Virus record (IMG/VR): IMGVR_UViG_3300044825_001403
Span: 107,665-127,664 of that record
Reading direction: 5' to 3' (one strand)
Source: an uncultured virus (IMG/VR IMGVR_UViG_3300044825_001403)
Taxonomy: Duplodnaviria > Heunggongvirae > Uroviricota > Caudoviricetes
DNA length: 20,000 nucleotides
Shown here piece after piece: positions 2,541 to 20,000 of the stretch. Under the pieces are notes generated by a model, which searched no databases, was not told where the DNA came from, and saw nothing but the letters and a program-made list of their open reading frames with translations. Position numbers and translations under genes: made by a program. Positions within the stretch are counted from its first letter, which is position 1. Each line of letters starts with the position of its first letter.

Positions 2541-2975
2541 ATGTTTAATAAAGATATCACAAGAGAGCTATCAAAATTAGATGTTTTAGAATCTAAATTA
2601 AACATCTACGAAACTCTATCAAGGGAAATGTTAGACAAGTTAGAAAACGCTGTAGATAAGATCTCAGAATCTAATCAACGAATTGCTAATATACTTGCTA
2701 AGCATGATGAACGTATTGATCAAAGTATTAAAACTGACGAGCTTCTCGTCAAAATGATTGATGAAGTTAAAAGTAAAAACACAGAAGAACATAAAGCAGT
2801 TATCAAAAGATTAGAAACAGTAGAATCTACTATCAACGATCTATCTAAGTTCAAATGGCAGGCGGTTGCCCTTGTGGGGGCCGCCGTTTTGATTGCTGGG
2901 TTCGTCGTCCCGTTTGTTGACAATATGCTGGGGATGTCCTATAATGGGAGGACTGAGCAAACCCAATCTAGATAA
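2541..2975 (+). CDS. coiled-coil protein with C-terminal transmembrane segment
   Basis: 144 aa, GAGGA RBS, heptad-rich, hydrophobic WQAVALVGAAVLIAGFVVPFV. Sits directly upstream of primase. Confidence 0.8.
   Translation: MFNKDITRELSKLDVLESKLNIYETLSREMLDKLENAVDKISESNQRIANILAKHDERIDQSIKTDELLVKMIDEVKSKNTEEHKAVIKRLETVESTINDLSKFKWQAVALVGAAVLIAGFVVPFVDNMLGMSYNGRTEQTQSR
2917..2945 (+). promoter_or_regulatory. sigma70-type early promoter for primase/nrd genes
   Basis: Perfect TTGACA (2917-2922), 17 bp, TATAAT (2940-2945), embedded in the upstream CDS. Confidence 0.85.
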
Positions 2976-3961
2976 TGAGTTACATTGATGTCAAGTACAT
3001 TGGTCTAGTATCCCCCCAACTTCAAAAATTTTCAAAGAAAAAAGATTCCCTCTACAATTTCCGATGCCCTTACTGTGGTGATAGTAAGAAGCATCAGAAT
3101 AAAACTAGAGGGTATCTTTTTAAGGTAAAGAATGATTTTGTATTTAAATGCCACAACTGTGGTGTGGGGAGAACCTTTACCAATTTCCTAAAAGATAACT
3201 GTGCCCATCTGCATAATCAGTATGTGATGGAACGTTATCGTGAAGGACTTACTGGTAAAAATACACAAACTAAAAATCCAGATTTCAATTTCAAGAAACC
3301 AGAATTCCAGAAGAGAAAAACAGGAATTGATCTGGAAAAGATTTCAGAACTAAATATTACACACCCAGCTCGGGTGTACTTAGAAGAAAGAAAAATTAAA
3401 GATCTCGATTATTTTTATTACTGTCCCAAATTTAAAGAATGGACGAACTCACAGCGACAAGTTTTCCCAAACTTAAAGCAAGATGGTCCTAGAATTATCA
3501 TACCTCTCAGGGATAAAGATGGAAACATGTTTGGATATCAAGGTAGGTCAATGGCTCCCAAAGCCAAGATTAGATACATCACAATCATGTTAGATGATTC
3601 TAAGACCAAAATATTTGGGATGGACAGGGTAGACGAAGACAAACCAATTTATGTTACCGAAGGACCATTTGATAGTATGTTCCTTTCTAATAGCATTGCT
3701 ATGTGTGGTAGTGATGTCAACATTAACAATAAAAATTTGGTATATGTTTTTGATAACGAACCTAGAAATAAAGAGATTGTATCCAAATATGATAAAGCAA
3801 TTGACGATGGAGAACGGATAGTTATCTGGCCACAAACCATTGTTGAAAAAGATATCAATGACATGGTATTGGCTGGACATGACGTTCAAAGTGTGGTAGA
3901 ATCAAACACCTACCAAGGCTTAGAAGCAAAACTTAAATTTACAACCTGGAAGAAAGTATGA
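2975..3961 (+). CDS. gp61: DNA primase (T4 gp61-like)
   Basis: N-terminal Zn finger (CPYCGD..FKCHNC), GYQGR, TOPRIM motifs TEGPFD, DNE and KDIND. Confidence 0.95.
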   Translation: MSYIDVKYIGLVSPQLQKFSKKKDSLYNFRCPYCGDSKKHQNKTRGYLFKVKNDFVFKCHNCGVGRTFTNFLKDNCAHLHNQYVMERYREGLTGKNTQTKNPDFNFKKPEFQKRKTGIDLEKISELNITHPARVYLEERKIKDLDYFYYCPKFKEWTNSQRQVFPNLKQDGPRIIIPLRDKDGNMFGYQGRSMAPKAKIRYITIMLDDSKTKIFGMDRVDEDKPIYVTEGPFDSMFLSNSIAMCGSDVNINNKNLVYVFDNEPRNKEIVSKYDKAIDDGERIVIWPQTIVEKDINDMVLAGHDVQSVVESNTYQGLEAKLKFTTWKKV

Positions 3962-7443: not shown

Positions 7444-7471
7444 GATAAATACCTCCGAAAGGAGGTTTTTT
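7444..7471 (+). promoter_or_regulatory. late promoter overlapping a terminator/RBS-sequestering hairpin
   Basis: GATAAATA 7444-7451, then ACCTCC-GAAA-GGAGGT and a T run. The GGAGG arm is 9 nt before ATG 7475. Confidence 0.7.
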
Positions 7472-7474
7472 ATT

Positions 7475-7813
7475 ATGAAAGTGCAATCAGCAAAAGCGAA
7501 AGGTCGCCGTCTTCAACAATGGGTTCGTGATAAACTTATCGAAATGCTTGATGTCCATCCTGAAGATATTGAAAGTAGATCTATGGGTGCTGGTGGGGAA
7601 GATTTAATTATGGCACGAGCTGCCAGACAAAAGTTTCCTCACAGCATTGAATGTAAAAATGTAGAAAAGTTAAATGTTTGGGAAGCATATGAACAAGCCC
7701 AAGCAAACTCAGGTGATTATGAACCAGTCCTTGTCATGAAAAAGAATGGCAAAAAGCCATTGGTTGTAGTAGATGCCGAGTATTACATTCAACTTCACGG
7801 AGAAAAACAATGA
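7475..7813 (+). CDS. PD-(D/E)XK nuclease, Holliday-junction-resolvase-like
   Basis: SAKAKGRRLQQ..GAGGEDL..SIECKN pattern (D..ExK), 112 aa. Confidence 0.7.
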   Translation: MKVQSAKAKGRRLQQWVRDKLIEMLDVHPEDIESRSMGAGGEDLIMARAARQKFPHSIECKNVEKLNVWEAYEQAQANSGDYEPVLVMKKNGKKPLVVVDAEYYIQLHGEKQ

Positions 7814-8514
7814 AAATTACTTTACAAAATTTCTTTGAACACTTTGATAAGAATAATCCGAATCATGTAAAAGCAGTACAAATGTTTCTACATGCCCTAG
7901 AAAAAGCAGCACCAGAAGAACTAGAAGATACTTCTGGCTGGGTCAAAACATTCAGAACACCTGTTCAAAAACAAGCAACAAATATTTTAGAAAACTTTCC
8001 TTGGTTTCCTCAGACAGACAACTACAGGGATGCACAAAGAACTTGTAATAGTTCTGCCTGTGCTATGTGCTTAGAATATTTAAAGCCAGGTACACTCAAA
8101 GGACCTAAAGGTGATGATGCTTATGTTCAAAAAGTATTTGCTATAGGTGATACCACTGACCACACGGTTCAAACTCGTGTGTTGATGTCTTATGGTATTA
8201 ATTCTGCTTTTAGATATAACTTAACATTTGATGAACTCGATAAGCAACTTGCAGCCAAGCGTCCAGTTGTTATTGGAATCCTTCACAGGGGAACCCTAGC
8301 AGCCCCTACAGGAGGCCATATGGTTGTTGTGATTGGGAAGACGCCCGCAGGCGATTACATCGTTCACGACCCTTATGGCAGCCTTAACGACGGTTATACA
8401 GGACCTGTTACAAATGGCAGGGGTGCGGTGTATAAGCGTAGCGATCTTGTGCGTAGATGGTGTCCTGCAGGAAATGATGGTTGGGGTAGAGTTTTTGATG
8501 CTGTAAAAAAGTAG
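7810..8514 (+). CDS. C39-like (papain-fold) peptidase, putative endolysin; N-terminal part of a frameshift fusion
   Basis: QTDN..RTCNSSACAM (Gln/Cys), GGHMVVVIG (His), VHDPYG (Asp). ATGA-coupled start; ends GTA AAA AAG TAG. Confidence 0.85.
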   Translation: MKITLQNFFEHFDKNNPNHVKAVQMFLHALEKAAPEELEDTSGWVKTFRTPVQKQATNILENFPWFPQTDNYRDAQRTCNSSACAMCLEYLKPGTLKGPKGDDAYVQKVFAIGDTTDHTVQTRVLMSYGINSAFRYNLTFDELDKQLAAKRPVVIGILHRGTLAAPTGGHMVVVIGKTPAGDYIVHDPYGSLNDGYTGPVTNGRGAVYKRSDLVRRWCPAGNDGWGRVFDAVKK

Positions 8515-8546
8515 AAAGTTCTATCCCTCAAGCTGGGATAGAACTT
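8505..8546 (+). promoter_or_regulatory. -1 programmed ribosomal frameshift signal
   Basis: A_AAA_AAG at 8505-8511 in the correct phase, TAG immediately after, hairpin AAGTTCTATCCC-tcaagct-GGGATAGAACTT at 8516-8546. Confidence 0.82.
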
Positions 8547-8987
8547 ATACGTGAGTTTGAAGGATGTCATTTACATGCCTATCCAGACCCAAAAACTGGC
8601 GGACCTCCTATTACAATTGGATGGGGAAGTACTAAAGATTTTAATGGTCAATCATTTAAAATGGGAAGGACAATAACACGAGAATATGCTGATAAACTTT
8701 TAGAATTTGATATTAAAAACAGATTCCTTCCTTATCTAGAAAAAATTCCTTATTGGGGAGAAATGAATGACAATCAACGGGGAGCACTTCTCAGCTTTGC
8801 TTATAATCTCGGTGCTGGCTTTTATGGCGGAGTTGGTTTTAATACTATCTCTCGCAATTTACGTGAGAAAGATTGGTTATCAATCCCAAAAACATTAGAA
8901 TTGTATCGTGATCCTGGCACTAACGTAGAAGCAGGATTACTGAGGAGAAGGAGAAGAGAAGGTTCTTTGTGGTTAGGAATAGGGTAA
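8511..8987 (+). CDS. GH24 phage lysozyme domain, in the -1 frame relative to the peptidase
   Basis: The frame opens after TGA 8496-8498 and reads VESSIPQAGIELIREFEGCHLHAYPDPKTGGPPITIGWGST..ALLSFAYNLG..GLLRRRRREG. The catalytic E/D/T region lies upstream of the first ATG (8661), with no ATG/GTG/TTG before it. Confidence 0.88.
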   Translation, partial: VESSIPQAGIELIREFEGCHLHAYPDPKTGGPPITIGWGSTKDFNGQSFKMGRTITREYADKLLEFDIKNRFLPYLEKIPYWGEMNDNQRGALLSFAYNLGAGFYGGVGFNTISRNLREKDWLSIPKTLELYRDPGTNVEAGLLRRRRREGSLWLGIG

Positions 8988-9311
8988 AGCAATACCTTCG
9001 CTTAACATTTTTTCATTTAATGTGACAGGATCGCCAACAAGATAAAGAGTGCCAAGTATTCTTCCATACTTGTCCTCTTTTGTTGTTTCAATAATCCACT
9101 CTCCTTCACGGGAGAGTTCTTTTTTTAGCCATTCTTTTGCCGATAGACCTTTTTCTTTCTCTGCTAGGTCTTTGGTTCTAGTTTCGGCAGCATTAATATC
9201 TTTTAGTCTTATTCTTTGAGAGAGTGTGATACCAAAACCTAAATCAATATCAACATCAATAGTGTCGCCATCAATGATTCTCTTGATCTTCTTGATCTTG
9301 TATTGATACAT
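8973..9311 (-). CDS. thermonuclease (SNase-like) family nuclease
   Basis: IIDGDTIDV, RIRLKDINAAE and DKYGRILG are staphylococcal-nuclease motifs. Confidence 0.9.
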   Translation of the reverse strand: MYQYKIKKIKRIIDGDTIDVDIDLGFGITLSQRIRLKDINAAETRTKDLAEKEKGLSAKEWLKKELSREGEWIIETTKEDKYGRILGTLYLVGDPVTLNEKMLSEGIALPYS

Positions 9312-10815: not shown

Positions 10816-11281
10816 ATTATTTGAAGTTAAGGAAGGAAAATTAAAAATTTTACCTTCATTAAGGTTTAAAAATATTGGTGGGTTTATTATAATTTCAATT
10901 GTTGCAATTATAATTGCTAACTTATCAGGAGCATTGAAAGTAAATGAAAGAGATCTTTGGAAATTTTATAATCTTTTAATTAATAGACTTGGTTTACAAC
11001 AGGAACTACCTGACATAAGAGATCATGAAAAACAACTTGACGCTCAAATTGAATTGGAAGTTGATAAAGCAATTCGTGATTACGAACGCTTGACAGGAGA
11101 CGATGGAACTGTTAGAATACCACCACCACGACGTTCCGAGAAACCAGTAGACACCTCGGTGTGCTACACTCCTGAATGTCAAGCACTTGGAGGAGAAATC
11201 CGAATCTGTGCTCCATGGGTTCCAGATTGCCCCTTGACAAACCAAGAACAATCTGGTACAATAAACAAGTTGTCTCAGTAG
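10808..11281 (+). CDS. membrane-anchored protein with Pro/Cys-rich C-terminus
   Basis: TM GGFIIISIVAIIIANL, helical middle, PPP..CYTPECQALGGEIRICAPWVPDCP. The stop lies inside the first bases of the tRNA; start could be 10796 or 10808. Confidence 0.75.
   Translation: MFKLFEVKEGKLKILPSLRFKNIGGFIIISIVAIIIANLSGALKVNERDLWKFYNLLINRLGLQQELPDIRDHEKQLDAQIELEVDKAIRDYERLTGDDGTVRIPPPRRSEKPVDTSVCYTPECQALGGEIRICAPWVPDCPLTNQEQSGTINKLSQ
11234..11262 (+). promoter_or_regulatory. sigma70-type promoter for tRNA genes
   Basis: TTGACA, 17 bp, TGg-TACAAT, 9 nt before the tRNA. Confidence 0.8.
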
Positions 11282-11394
11282 CTCAGTGGAATAGAGCAAC
11301 CGCCTTCGGGAGTTCCGAGTGGACTTAATGGGGAGCATTACCCTATACTCTCATAAGCGGTCGGTCGCTGGTTCAAATCCAGCCTGAGACGCCA
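11272..11394 (+). tRNA. tRNA-Arg (TCT or TCG) with a 46-nt anticodon-loop insertion, CCA encoded
   Basis: Acceptor GTCTCAG/CTGAGAC, D arm GCTC/GAGC with A20, anticodon stem ACCGC/GCGGT enclosing 53 nt instead of 7, T arm GCTGG-TTCAAAT-CCAGC, GCCA end. Confidence 0.85.
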
Positions 11395-12858: not shown

Positions 12859-13740
12859 ATGATGATTCGTTCGTTTATTGCCGCTGGTGTTGCTGCCGCT
12901 TCTATGGCTGCTCCTGCTATGGCACAAGTTACCAGTGTTAAGCAACTGAGTGATGTTCAACCTACCCAGTGGTCGTATCAAGCGATTACTAATCTTGTTG
13001 AGCGTTATGGTTGTGTTGCTGGTTATCCCAATGGCACTTTCCAGCCTGGTCAACCTGCTACCCGTGCTGAGCTTGCTGCTCTCACGAATGCTTGCCTCGA
13101 CCGTATCACTGAGTTCTACAGTGCTGCTGATGCCGCTCTGGCTGCTGCTCTCCGTGCTGAGTTCGCTAAAGAAATCGGTGCTACCAATGCCCGTGTGAGT
13201 GCTCTGGAACTCGCTGCTGCCCGTAAGGCACAAGGAGTTGGTAACTACCTTGGTGCTGGTGTACTTCTTAACAAGCAAGGTGTTGCTGGCAACGGTTACA
13301 CCGAGAACCGTACTATCTCTGGTGCTACCATTCAAGGTCGTTATGCTGTGAAGACTTTCAGCAATCAGAATGCTGTTGCTGTTCGTCCTTATGCTAACCT
13401 TGTCGGTACTCCTGCTGGTCAGATCGGTGCTGGTGGTGGTGCTCTCCTCTCTTATGATTGGAGCATTTCCCGTGCTGCTTCTGGTGTGAGCCGTGCTAAC
13501 ATCTACACTGGTGTTGGTTATCAAATTCCTTTCGTGAACGATACTGCTGCTAACTATCAGTCTGCTGTTGGCGAGAAGGGTCAAGTTGTGCTTGCTCTGG
13601 GTATCGAAGGTCGTCTGACCAACTCTCTCGTTGGTTTTGCTGATCTGAAGTTCCCCACCACCAACGCTGCTAATAGCTATGGTGCTACCAATGGGACTTA
13701 TTCTCCTGTGTTCACCACGGGTCTCGGCTTCAAGTTCTGA
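12859..13740 (+). CDS. SLH-domain outer-membrane beta-barrel protein (cyanobacterial porin-type N-terminus)
   Basis: Signal peptide (..APAMA), VTSVKQLSDVQPTQWSYQAITNLVERYGCVAGYPNGTF..TRAE SLH motif as in SomA/SomB porins, amphipathic beta strands, C-terminal GLGFKF. Confidence 0.85.
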   Translation: MMIRSFIAAGVAAASMAAPAMAQVTSVKQLSDVQPTQWSYQAITNLVERYGCVAGYPNGTFQPGQPATRAELAALTNACLDRITEFYSAADAALAAALRAEFAKEIGATNARVSALELAAARKAQGVGNYLGAGVLLNKQGVAGNGYTENRTISGATIQGRYAVKTFSNQNAVAVRPYANLVGTPAGQIGAGGGALLSYDWSISRAASGVSRANIYTGVGYQIPFVNDTAANYQSAVGEKGQVVLALGIEGRLTNSLVGFADLKFPTTNAANSYGATNGTYSPVFTTGLGFKF

Positions 13741-19306: not shown

Positions 19307-19344
19307 CCCCTTGACAGGGGAGGGAACCCGTGCTATTATAAATA
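19307..19344 (+). promoter_or_regulatory. composite psbA promoter (sigma70 plus late)
   Basis: CCCC-TTGACA-GGGG, 17-bp spacer, TGc-TATTAT 19334-19339 overlapping TATAAATA 19337-19344. Confidence 0.85.
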
Positions 19345-19345
19345 T

Positions 19346-19373
19346 TGTTAGGAAATGGAAACATTTCTTAACA
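19346..19373 (+). promoter_or_regulatory. 5'-terminal hairpin of the psbA leader
   Basis: TGTTAGGAAATG-GAAA-CATTTCTTAACA, 12 bp with one G-U pair and a GNRA loop. Confidence 0.65.
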
Positions 19374-19403
19374 TACTTTTTAAACCTTACTGTCTTAATA
19401 ACT

Positions 19404-20000
19404 ATGACTGCTACTCTCGCTCAAAAGCGTGAAAGCAACACTTGGGAACAGTTCTGTGAGTGGGTGACTTCTACCAACAATCGTCTTTACGTTGGTTGGT
19501 TTGGAACTCTAATGATTCCTACCCTGCTCGCTGCTACTATCTGTTTCATCGTTGCCTTCATTGCTGCACCTCCCGTTGACATCGACGGTATTCGTGAACC
19601 TGTTGCTGGTTCACTTCTTTATGGAAATAACATCATCTCTGGTGCTGTTGTTCCTTCTAGCAATGCTATCGGACTTCACTTCTATCCTATTTGGGAAGCT
19701 GCTTCTCTCGATGAGTGGCTATATAATGGTGGACCATTTCAACTGGTCGTCTTCCACTTTCTGATTGGTATCTATGCCTACATGGGTCGTGAATGGGAAC
19801 TATCTTACCGACTGGGTATGCGTCCTTGGATTTGTGTTGCCTACTCTGCACCCGTTGCTGCTGCTTCTGCAGTGTTCCTGGTCTATCCCTTTGGTCAAGG
19901 ATCCTTCAGTGACGCAATGCCTCTTGGGATTTCGGGAACTTTCAACTACATGCTTGTTTTCCAGGCAGAACACAACATTCTTATGCATCCTTTCCACATG
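19404..20000 (+). CDS. psbA: photosystem II D1 protein (5' part, 199 codons, runs off window)
   Basis: [77 protein letters not shown]. Confidence 0.98.

Follow-up and report, generated by a model that had tools for sequence, protein, structure and literature searches.

Within a 20,000-nucleotide (nt) stretch of DNA from an uncultured virus (positions 107,665 to 127,664 of the IMG/VR record IMGVR_UViG_3300044825_001403; hereafter the window), a gene for a papain-like cysteine peptidase is continued, in the -1 reading frame and with no start codon of its own, by a complete GH24 lysozyme. The junction between the two holds a -1 frameshift cassette that is genuine, conserved and missing from annotations, in which the mechanism is known and the gene class is new. 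Its sequence signals recur and covary in relatives, the lysozyme frame is maintained by purifying selection and plausible host types carry a single tRNA-Lys. The two-domain lysin is very probably made by programmed -1 ribosomal frameshifting of the tandem-slippage kind, a reading strongly supported by the comparison of relatives, and in this phage and ~70 distinct relatives the lysozyme would most likely be made only through the -1 slip.

Most ribosomes translating the peptidase gene would stop at the TAG at 8512 and release a 234-amino acid (aa) protein composed of an N-terminal module and the peptidase. The hairpin at 8516-8546 would halt a fraction of them while tRNA-Lys occupies AAA and AAG, and these would slip back by one base on A_AAA_AAG and read on as GTA GAA AGT.. 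in the -1 frame, giving a 392-aa protein in which the same module and peptidase are joined to the GH24 lysozyme; the lysozyme would exist only as this fusion because it has no initiation site of its own. We infer the slippage, its efficiency, the two products and the 'set ratio' between them, as an earlier note on this DNA had proposed, from the sequence, and both products would presumably act on the cyanobacterial wall at lysis (or entry). The parts of the locus are as follows.

7810..8514, plus strand: 234-aa papain-like (C39-like) cysteine peptidase, 0-frame open reading frame (ORF) and predicted short product (ORF list, translation, Pfam, PHROG, AlphaFold2 (AF2), Foldseek)
7810..7965, plus strand: N-terminal module, residues 1-52, a small helical domain with a predicted dimer interface (AF2 model, homodimer prediction, copies in DSL-LC02/03)
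8505..8511, plus strand: slippery heptamer A_AAA_AAG in the X_XXY_YYZ phase of the peptidase frame (read in the sequence and in relatives)
8512..8514, plus strand: 0-frame stop TAG directly after the heptamer (read in the sequence)
8516..8546, plus strand: predicted 3' stimulatory hairpin, arms 8516-8527 and 8535-8546, loop 8528-8534 (fold, covariation)
8511..8987, plus strand: -1-frame continuation of 158 codons and a stop, a complete GH24 lysozyme (translation, Pfam, PHROG, PDB, ratio of nonsynonymous to synonymous substitution rates (dN/dS))

The slippery site, the lysozyme frame and the hairpin

The peptidase ORF (7810-8514) ends GTA AAA AAG TAG, with A_AAA_AAG at 8505-8511 in phase. Such an in-phase heptamer is rare in the genes that carry it, with a background of 1 in 23,325 codon positions in the peptidase bodies of 97 loci, where AAA-AAG is also the rarest codon pair for Lys-Lys (3 of 48). 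The -1 frame is open from 8499 to 8987 and reads ..KKVESSIPQAGIELIREFEG.., with the codon for the catalytic Glu at 8559-8561. It holds no ATG, GTG or TTG before the catalytic motif, and its first ATG, at 8661, lies past EFEG, YPD and ITIGWG, the positions of which we take, as in T4 lysozyme, to be the catalytic Glu/Asp/Thr triad. The domain encoded in this frame matches PF00959 Phage_lysozyme (E 2e-21; 77 bits against a cut-off of 22.3) over residues 15-150 and profile positions 2-125 of 125, matches positions 243-403 of phrog_3617, and aligns over its full length, through all three motifs, with solved GH24 enzymes in the PDB (E down to 9e-14).

The length of the A-run was checked on assembled contigs (Logan), in which six A's with no insertion or deletion are read in three runs from three studies (X1, X4 and X11). 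X4 covers 8462-8698 and X11 covers 8383-8533, both from other studies, while X1 is possibly the source sample. None of the runs listed as containing the stretch is an RNA run. A run of seven A's, which the earlier note had named as the outcome that would reduce the locus to a simple in-frame fusion, did not occur in these independent contigs. Homopolymer lengths are commonly miscounted and seven-A relatives do exist, but a sequencing or assembly error at this site, or a recently broken and decaying lysozyme pseudogene, is hardly credible: the six-A run is read in contigs of two further studies, in dozens of assemblies made independently and in two isolate genomes, and the lysozyme ORF, intact at 53 of the 56 loci where its end is included, has a median dN/dS of 0.16 (maximum 0.35) over 127 pairs of start-less relatives. 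By this measure the start-less lysozyme ORF is under purifying selection.

The hairpin arms, AAGTTCTATCCC and GGGATAGAACTT, form 12 perfect pairs around a 7-nt loop, starting 4 nt past the heptamer; the 5' arm codes for the linker and the 3' arm for the first residues of the lysozyme domain. The segment 8495-8570 folds with -23.5 kcal/mol compared with -12.1 +/- 2.9 for 200 shuffles (z = -3.9), none of which is as good. An independent contig of the same phage type carries A8538G, which turns a U-A pair into U-G. Rfam gave no match at the gathering score, the best being an unrelated family with 21.3 bits against 50 (E 0.59).

On the minus strand the same structure is called terminator-like by a consensus scan (8516-8546 with 8505-8510: a 12-pair stem, then TCTACTTTTT), and a minus-strand nuclease gene (8973-9311) lies convergent with the lysin genes, as convergent genes do downstream of the corresponding loci in S-PM2 and S-SRM01. 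We nevertheless regard it as very improbable that the hairpin and its minus-strand T-run are the intrinsic terminator of the nuclease gene, placed at the domain junction by coincidence. The structure is ~430 nt past the end of that gene and within the lysozyme ORF, and its T-run is 4 nt from the stem here and 0-8 nt from it in relatives. In S-CAM7, moreover, the plus strand carries both the homopolymer, there a run of T, and the next gene, so that no minus-strand terminator can be read there. A terminator would also leave unexplained the phase of the heptamer, the adjacent stop and the link with the missing start codon.

The earlier note, which had been written from these letters alone, holds to the base in its account of the junction: the peptidase end GTA AAA AAG TAG with the heptamer in phase, the perfect 12-bp hairpin with its 7-nt loop 4 nt further on, and the start-less but complete lysozyme frame with a first ATG beyond the active-site motifs are all as it described them, and the product lengths of 234 aa and 392 aa (234 + 158) follow from the coordinates.

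Junctions in relatives and other routes to a lysozyme

Relatives were collected by four IMG/VR scans with the peptidases of the window, S-CAM7, S-PM2 and ACG-2014f and joined to seven GenBank loci, giving 273 sequences, from which removal of duplicates and incomplete loci left 125 distinct junctions. Some statistics refer to the first 56 junctions of the frameshift class, to which 13 were added later. The census classes are as follows.

69 distinct junctions: lysozyme in the -1 frame with no overlapping start (frameshift class)
18 distinct junctions: lysozyme with its own ATGA/GTGA or ATG start
2 distinct junctions: separate genes (DSL-LC02/03)
18 distinct junctions: peptidase and lysozyme in frame
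1 distinct junction: reversed domain order
17 distinct junctions: no lysozyme downstream

In all 69 start-less -1 junctions a slippery heptamer stands in phase at a distance of 0-2 codons from the stop; it is A_AAA_AAG in 67 and T_TTT_TTT in the remaining two (S-CAM7 and L089). In the first 56 the distance from heptamer to stop is 0 codons in 48, 1 codon in six and 2 codons in two, and the stop itself is TAG in 46, TAA in eight and TGA in two. The heptamer is absent from all 17 peptidase-only junctions and from 12 of the 18 in-frame fusions, in which the lysines are coded AAG AAG, GAG AAG and alike; a further two in-frame junction types are seven-A versions that retain the hairpin, and four belong to the ACG-2014f lineage, with A_AAA_AAG, a small hairpin and a stop that follows at once in the -1 frame. 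Of the layouts in the set the frameshift is the most frequent and not the sole one, since own starts of the ATGA/GTGA type, seven-A fusions, true in-frame fusions, reversed order and loss of the lysozyme are all represented. At the 17 junctions with the peptidase alone (L012, L016, L018-L022, L025-L029 and others) there is no lysozyme within ~1.2-1.5 kb, and at many of these loci the peptidase stop is followed by a TATAAATA motif and apparent tRNA genes.

A stable fold accompanies the heptamer throughout most of the frameshift class: taken over 62 nt after the heptamer, the minimum free energy is -12 kcal/mol or lower in 64 of 69 junctions, and z is below -2 in 60 of 69. The 18 own-start junctions have weak folds, with medians of -6 to -10, and the difference in fold strength between the two classes is significant (first 56 against 13, Mann-Whitney p = 6e-7). 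Between clades the arms are wholly unlike in sequence (AAGTTCTATCCC/GGGATAGAACTT, AATCAACACCACA/TGTGGTGTTGATT, ACGCCAACTAA/TTAGTTGGC.T and AACTCTACTCC/GGAGTAGAGTT). In hairpin type A1, five of eight pairs are changed on both sides (e.g. C-G 7, U-A 7), and 89% of cells are paired compared with 33-41% when the arms are slid, a score reached by none of 500 shuffles; in type A2, which has 14 pairs and three double changes, 98.6% are paired compared with 30-49% when slid, and 5 of 500 shuffles reach the score. The check that the earlier note had proposed, whether heptamer, -1 offset and a covarying hairpin are conserved, thus has a positive answer in the census of 125 junctions and in the A1 and A2 covariation counts, and its opposite outcome, homologues that are all in frame or self-starting, did not occur, most relatives being neither.

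The distribution of start codons bears on whether the lysozyme could be a separate protein, with initiation at a nearby or non-canonical codon (ATA/ATC in the window, GTG/TTG in relatives) or re-initiation once translation has terminated at the adjacent stop, and with the heptamer doing nothing but code for a conserved Lys-Lys. The 18 distinct junctions with ATGA/GTGA or ATG starts show that such a layout arises, and the heptamer is kept in nine of them. In S-SRM01, GCA AAA AAG is followed by a lysozyme whose ATG lies in an ATGA overlap. Within the frameshift class, 28 of the first 56 junctions have a GTG, a TTG or (in three) an ATG before the catalytic Glu, which leaves room for separate initiation. 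In the other 28, the window and 27 more, there is no ATG, GTG or TTG at all before the catalytic motif, which makes initiation at those codons impossible here, and the candidate codons of the window are within the 12-bp stem. Lysine pairs elsewhere in the peptidases seldom use AAA-AAG, as noted above, in-frame relatives use other codons at the junction, and the heptamer is gone wherever the lysozyme is gone; the natural in-frame and seven-A fusions show besides that the fused protein is functional. On this balance we hold separate initiation to be highly improbable and programmed frameshifting to be the better account.

The seven-A fusions raise another route. They read ..DVKKVENSTP.., identical to the predicted trans-frame sequence, and one junction with six A's (L407) is otherwise of almost the same sequence as the seven-A variants L077 (7 loci) and L170, so that these junctions, as read, represent a natural switch between an in-frame and a frameshift-dependent fusion. 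They also show that one extra A gives a working fusion, and a polymerase that inserted an extra A at the A6 run (or an extra U at the T8 run in S-CAM7) would produce in-frame mRNAs with no shift by the ribosome. The eight T's in S-CAM7 are of a length at which such slippage is plausible; six A's are short for it. The hairpin would form only after the polymerase had passed the run and yet is conserved, covaries and is weak where the lysozyme has its own start, while the exact phase of the heptamer and its final G would be irrelevant to a polymerase. Thermus, with two tRNA-Lys species, does use polymerase slippage for dnaX, on a longer run (passages of PMC5009743). According to the same passages A_AAA_AAG is the most shift-prone heptamer in E. 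coli, in which the sole tRNA-Lys pairs weakly with AAG, and about half of bacteria have this sole tRNA-Lys arrangement (PMC5009743); the host types considered here have it too, a condition that those passages tie to the ribosomal route. Transcriptional slippage thus retains only a slight chance beside ribosomal frameshifting.

All 43 tRNA genes of the S-PM2 host Synechococcus WH7803 were typed, and a single one of them is a tRNA-Lys (anticodon UUU). The draft genome of the freshwater Cyanobium sp. N.Huapi 1H5 likewise has one tRNA-Lys (UUU) and none with CUU among 30 ARAGORN genes in 28 regions. None of the six ARAGORN genes of the phage itself (window, L195 and L197; record 67% complete) is a tRNA-Lys.

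The layout is also found in isolates. S-PM2 has GCA AAA AAG TAA, a hairpin of other sequence and a start-less -1-frame lysozyme, which is annotated as a 72-aa stub ('putative lysin'). S-CAM7 has the same layout with an in-phase T_TTT_TTT (eight T's in a row) and a hairpin, and its annotated 'lysin' is a 90-aa stub. ACG-2014f has both domains in one coding sequence of 405 aa, a single profile of 405 positions (phrog_3617) spans both halves, and in S-CREM1 the two domains are fused in reverse order. In the ACG-2014f lineage (L004 2013-2046; L347, L348 and L349) an A_AAA_AAG is accompanied by a hairpin of 6-8 bp (GGAGGG..CCCTCC); a -1 shift there would stop after one codon and leave a peptidase-only product, which is the polarity of dnaX. 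More distant in-frame relatives lack the heptamer, so its presence there may be specific to that lineage or a matter of chance.

A quick IQ-TREE search on 97 peptidase rows, rooted at the midpoint only for display, gave a large clade of 87 rows, 54 of which have the frameshift layout; the window, S-PM2 and the loci from freshwater metagenomes all belong to it. Dispersed through this clade are forms with an own start, with the lysozyme lost or with seven A's, and 18 state changes are counted overall compared with a mean of 38.7 after shuffling. The S-CAM7 pair, with its T-run site, is nested in a well-supported clade of in-frame marine fusions, and a slippery site has therefore been gained at this junction at least twice.

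Several observations weigh against programmed frameshifting, beginning with the upstream start codons in half of the first 56 junctions and the heptamers kept in nine own-start junctions, to which the in-frame ACG-2014f lineage has to be added. Part of the conservation of the heptamer could be at the protein level (A/V-K-K), and the census loci are relatives from metagenomes and not independent samples. The predicted spacer from heptamer to hairpin measures 4 nt in the window and 0-8 nt (for the most part 2-8) in relatives, on average less than the 5-9 nt of model frameshift cassettes. A third hairpin type, A5, is 92% paired and has too little variation for covariation, its score being reached by 435 of 500 shuffles. 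No Shine-Dalgarno-like 5' stimulator at a dnaX-like distance was seen in a reading by eye only, the sole G-rich stretch upstream of the heptamer being Trp-Gly codons ~18 nt away. Finally, WH7803 and Cyanobium are plausible host types and not a proven host of this phage, and the 30 Cyanobium genes are 29 of class I length and one tRNA-Tyr, with 9 of 10 long hits (class II length) outside the typed set.

The peptidase, its N-terminal module and a possible mixed lysin

The short product is predicted to be a C39-like peptidase with a papain-like fold. Residues 62-189 match PF13529 Peptidase_C39_2 (E 2e-10; 41.8 bits against a cut-off of 24), the whole ORF matches positions 1-234 of phrog_3617 as well as phrog_10051 'endolysin', and C79, C84, H170 and D187 are invariant in 27 peptidase sequences. 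The AF2 model has a mean predicted local distance difference test score (pLDDT) of 80.7, and its Foldseek matches are papain-like with template modelling (TM) scores of just 0.41-0.50, among them Alr0975, staphopain, 3erv (C39-like, from B. anthracis) and the peptidase domains of PCAT1, all four with E 1e-5 to 1e-3, as well as the pseudomurein endoisopeptidase PeiR; at the sequence level no PDB entry matched below E 0.26. Of the earlier note's reading of the locus as a -1 frameshifted C39 peptidase-lysozyme, the frameshift is thus upheld by census and covariation and the peptidase by PF13529 as C39-like, with membership of C39 proper unproven.

In front of the peptidase core lies a module of 52 residues, with helices at residues 5-8, 17-33, 35-38 and 43-49, which a low-confidence linker (residues 53-73) joins to the core. 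It matched no Pfam family at E up to 10 and had no usable match in the protein atlas, and in a wide VIA-align search of its fold the best Z was 3.3, with none of 5 or more among 48,161 chains. A homodimer prediction for the 234-aa protein passes its controls, with a score of 0.65 compared with 0.27 for the best control; the calibration, in which 20 of 30 proteins with a solved same-chain pair and 1 of 23 with a solved single chain attain the mark, holds only roughly here as a custom alignment was used. Agreement among the three runs extends to 79% or more of the contacts, pLDDT for the partner is 83 or higher, and all confident contacts are within residues 1-52. The prediction supports binding through the module without showing it.

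A second line of evidence on the module comes from DSL-LC03 and DSL-LC02, the only two isolates whose lysozyme is encoded away from the peptidase, by a gene that starts at an ATG of its own. Their lysozymes (L087 1294-1962 and L086 1297-1968, respectively) start with a copy of the N-terminal module of their own, followed by an Ala/Pro-rich linker; by BLASTP this copy is 45% identical to residues 2-49 of the window peptidase (E 9e-10). Among 57 phage records that hold the module, it occurs twice in just these two. Taken with the dimer prediction, the arrangement suggests that lysin subunits are paired by the module and that the lysozyme depends on having it in cis. Because the DSL pair represents one evolutionary event, the duplication together with the dimer prediction counts as a lead, short of a finding. 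As a separate observation, seven own-ATG lysozymes with ATGA overlaps (L042, L367, L368, L372, L377, L391 and L412) have a conserved N-terminal extension of 45 residues (MSIKFIDAVKNHKDLPHQNDAW..). BLASTP found no match between the extension of the L367 type and the module; hhalign aligned the equivalent region with a weak match (probability 5%, E 0.008).

It is conceivable, as a tentative extension of the frameshift reading, that the short form (module-peptidase) and the long form (module-peptidase-lysozyme) pair through residues 1-52 into a mixed two-enzyme lysin, in which the rate of shifting would set the number of lysozyme heads per lysin particle. We raise this possibility because the dimer prediction for residues 1-52, the module copies in DSL-LC02/03 and the repeated appearance of two-product solutions fit with it. 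Such solutions recur as the T_TTT_TTT site in the S-CAM7 lineage and, with reversed polarity, in the seven-A and ACG-2014f variants.

The phage, the gene neighbourhood and known recoding systems

The window is the last 20 kb of a virus record of 127,664 bp that is rated 67% complete. The phage is a freshwater one, and the genes that mark it as a T4-like cyanophage include those for the large and small subunits of ribonucleotide reductase, for a RusA-like resolvase, a primase and a virion protein of 1504 aa, tRNA genes and, at the window end, psbA; the nearest public phages are all Synechococcus myoviruses of the Kyanoviridae, with ~70% nucleotide identity to the window. The resolvase, peptidase and lysozyme genes (7475-8987) are possibly transcribed as a unit. 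On the plus strand, hairpins with T-tails that resemble terminators are found at 7451-7466, just after nrdB, and at 9098-9117, ~110 nt after the lysozyme stop. The T4-type late promoter motif TATAAATA has three matches in the window (318, 11474 and 19337), none of them near the lysin genes and none in the region in front of 7475-8987, and 45 of 200 shuffles reach as many.

Elsewhere in the window, the pair 2541-2975 and 2975-3961 was considered as a second split gene, both parts matching phrog_451, and rejected, as the two are joined by an ordinary TAATG stop-start overlap and the second has its own ATG; the first is a DUF7201 coiled coil and the second a primase-like protein, in ordinary coupling. 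At 11272-11391 (118936-119055 of the record), just upstream of a tRNA-Val gene, a 120-nt segment matches the RF00005 tRNA model with 55 bits and has no ARAGORN call; this may be a degenerate tRNA copy or a tRNA that carries an insertion. An ORF of 293 aa at 12859-13740 contains an S-layer homology (SLH) domain (E 1.9e-11) with no PHROG match, an unusual cargo for a cyanophage. The psbA fragment at 19311-20000 runs past the window end, with the TATAAATA match at 19337 inside it, and at the protein level it shares 98% identity with the psbA of Synechococcus and Cyanobium genomes, both freshwater and marine.

Most of the known phage frameshifts concern tail chaperones, capsid and tail proteins and replication genes; a conserved one on which the domain content of a wall-degrading enzyme depends would bring lysis into phage recoding. 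No account of a ribosomal frameshift in a lysin gene, whether from a cyanophage or not, was found in full-text literature searches, with subscription papers and supplements outside their scope, or in passages of PMC3483164, PMC2908710, PMC10885494, 10.1101/2025.10.02.679949 and PMC5009743, and no proteomic paper came to light; a passage of the PRFect paper does list 'lysins' among genes 'known to contain a frameshift'. Many lysozymes of T4-like cyanophages are reported as truncated, catalytically dead stubs or are missed (the 72-aa and 90-aa stubs of S-PM2 and S-CAM7 being cases in point), which a rule based on the cassette would correct. The own-start, in-frame, seven-A, reversed and lost layouts on one tree provide natural controls. 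Little is known of the way in which T4-like cyanophages get through the wall of Synechococcus, and the cassette, the sole host tRNA-Lys and the predicted dimerizing module offer hypotheses that can be tested in existing laboratory systems.

Among the closest known systems is dnaX of E. coli, in which a 3' stem-loop acts as stimulator and two products share their N-terminal part, as is predicted for the lysin locus. The tau and gamma forms depend on the same A_AAA_AAG and on a sole tRNA-Lys(UUU) (passages of PMC5009743). The dnaX shift, however, truncates the protein whereas the lysin shift would add a whole catalytic domain, the dnaX polarity being found only in the ACG-2014f lineage and the seven-A variants; dnaX also has a 5' Shine-Dalgarno stimulator, of a kind not seen by eye at the lysin junction, and the gene classes are unrelated. 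In the orfA-orfB fusions of the IS3 family a -1 shift near the end of the upstream ORF yields, from overlapping frames, a minor fusion product at a fixed ratio. The G/GT tail assembly chaperone of lambda is alike in placing its -1 shift near the end of the upstream ORF and in making a minor fusion at a fixed ratio (passages of PMC5009743). The lambda and IS3 products are structural or assembly proteins and transposition proteins, respectively, whereas the lysin junction joins two cell-wall hydrolase domains.

Among lysins themselves, the in-frame two-domain cyanophage proteins (phrog_3617; ACG-2014f gp211; S-CREM1) have the same N-terminal module, peptidase and GH24 domain at 60-77% identity, but are single ORFs without recoding, in reversed order in S-CREM1 and in most cases without heptamer or hairpin. 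Lysins that make two products by internal initiation likewise derive a long and a short protein from one locus, and these may assemble into one enzyme, as may those of the present locus; their products share the C-terminal part, whereas the two predicted here would share the N-terminal part and would arise by frameshifting.

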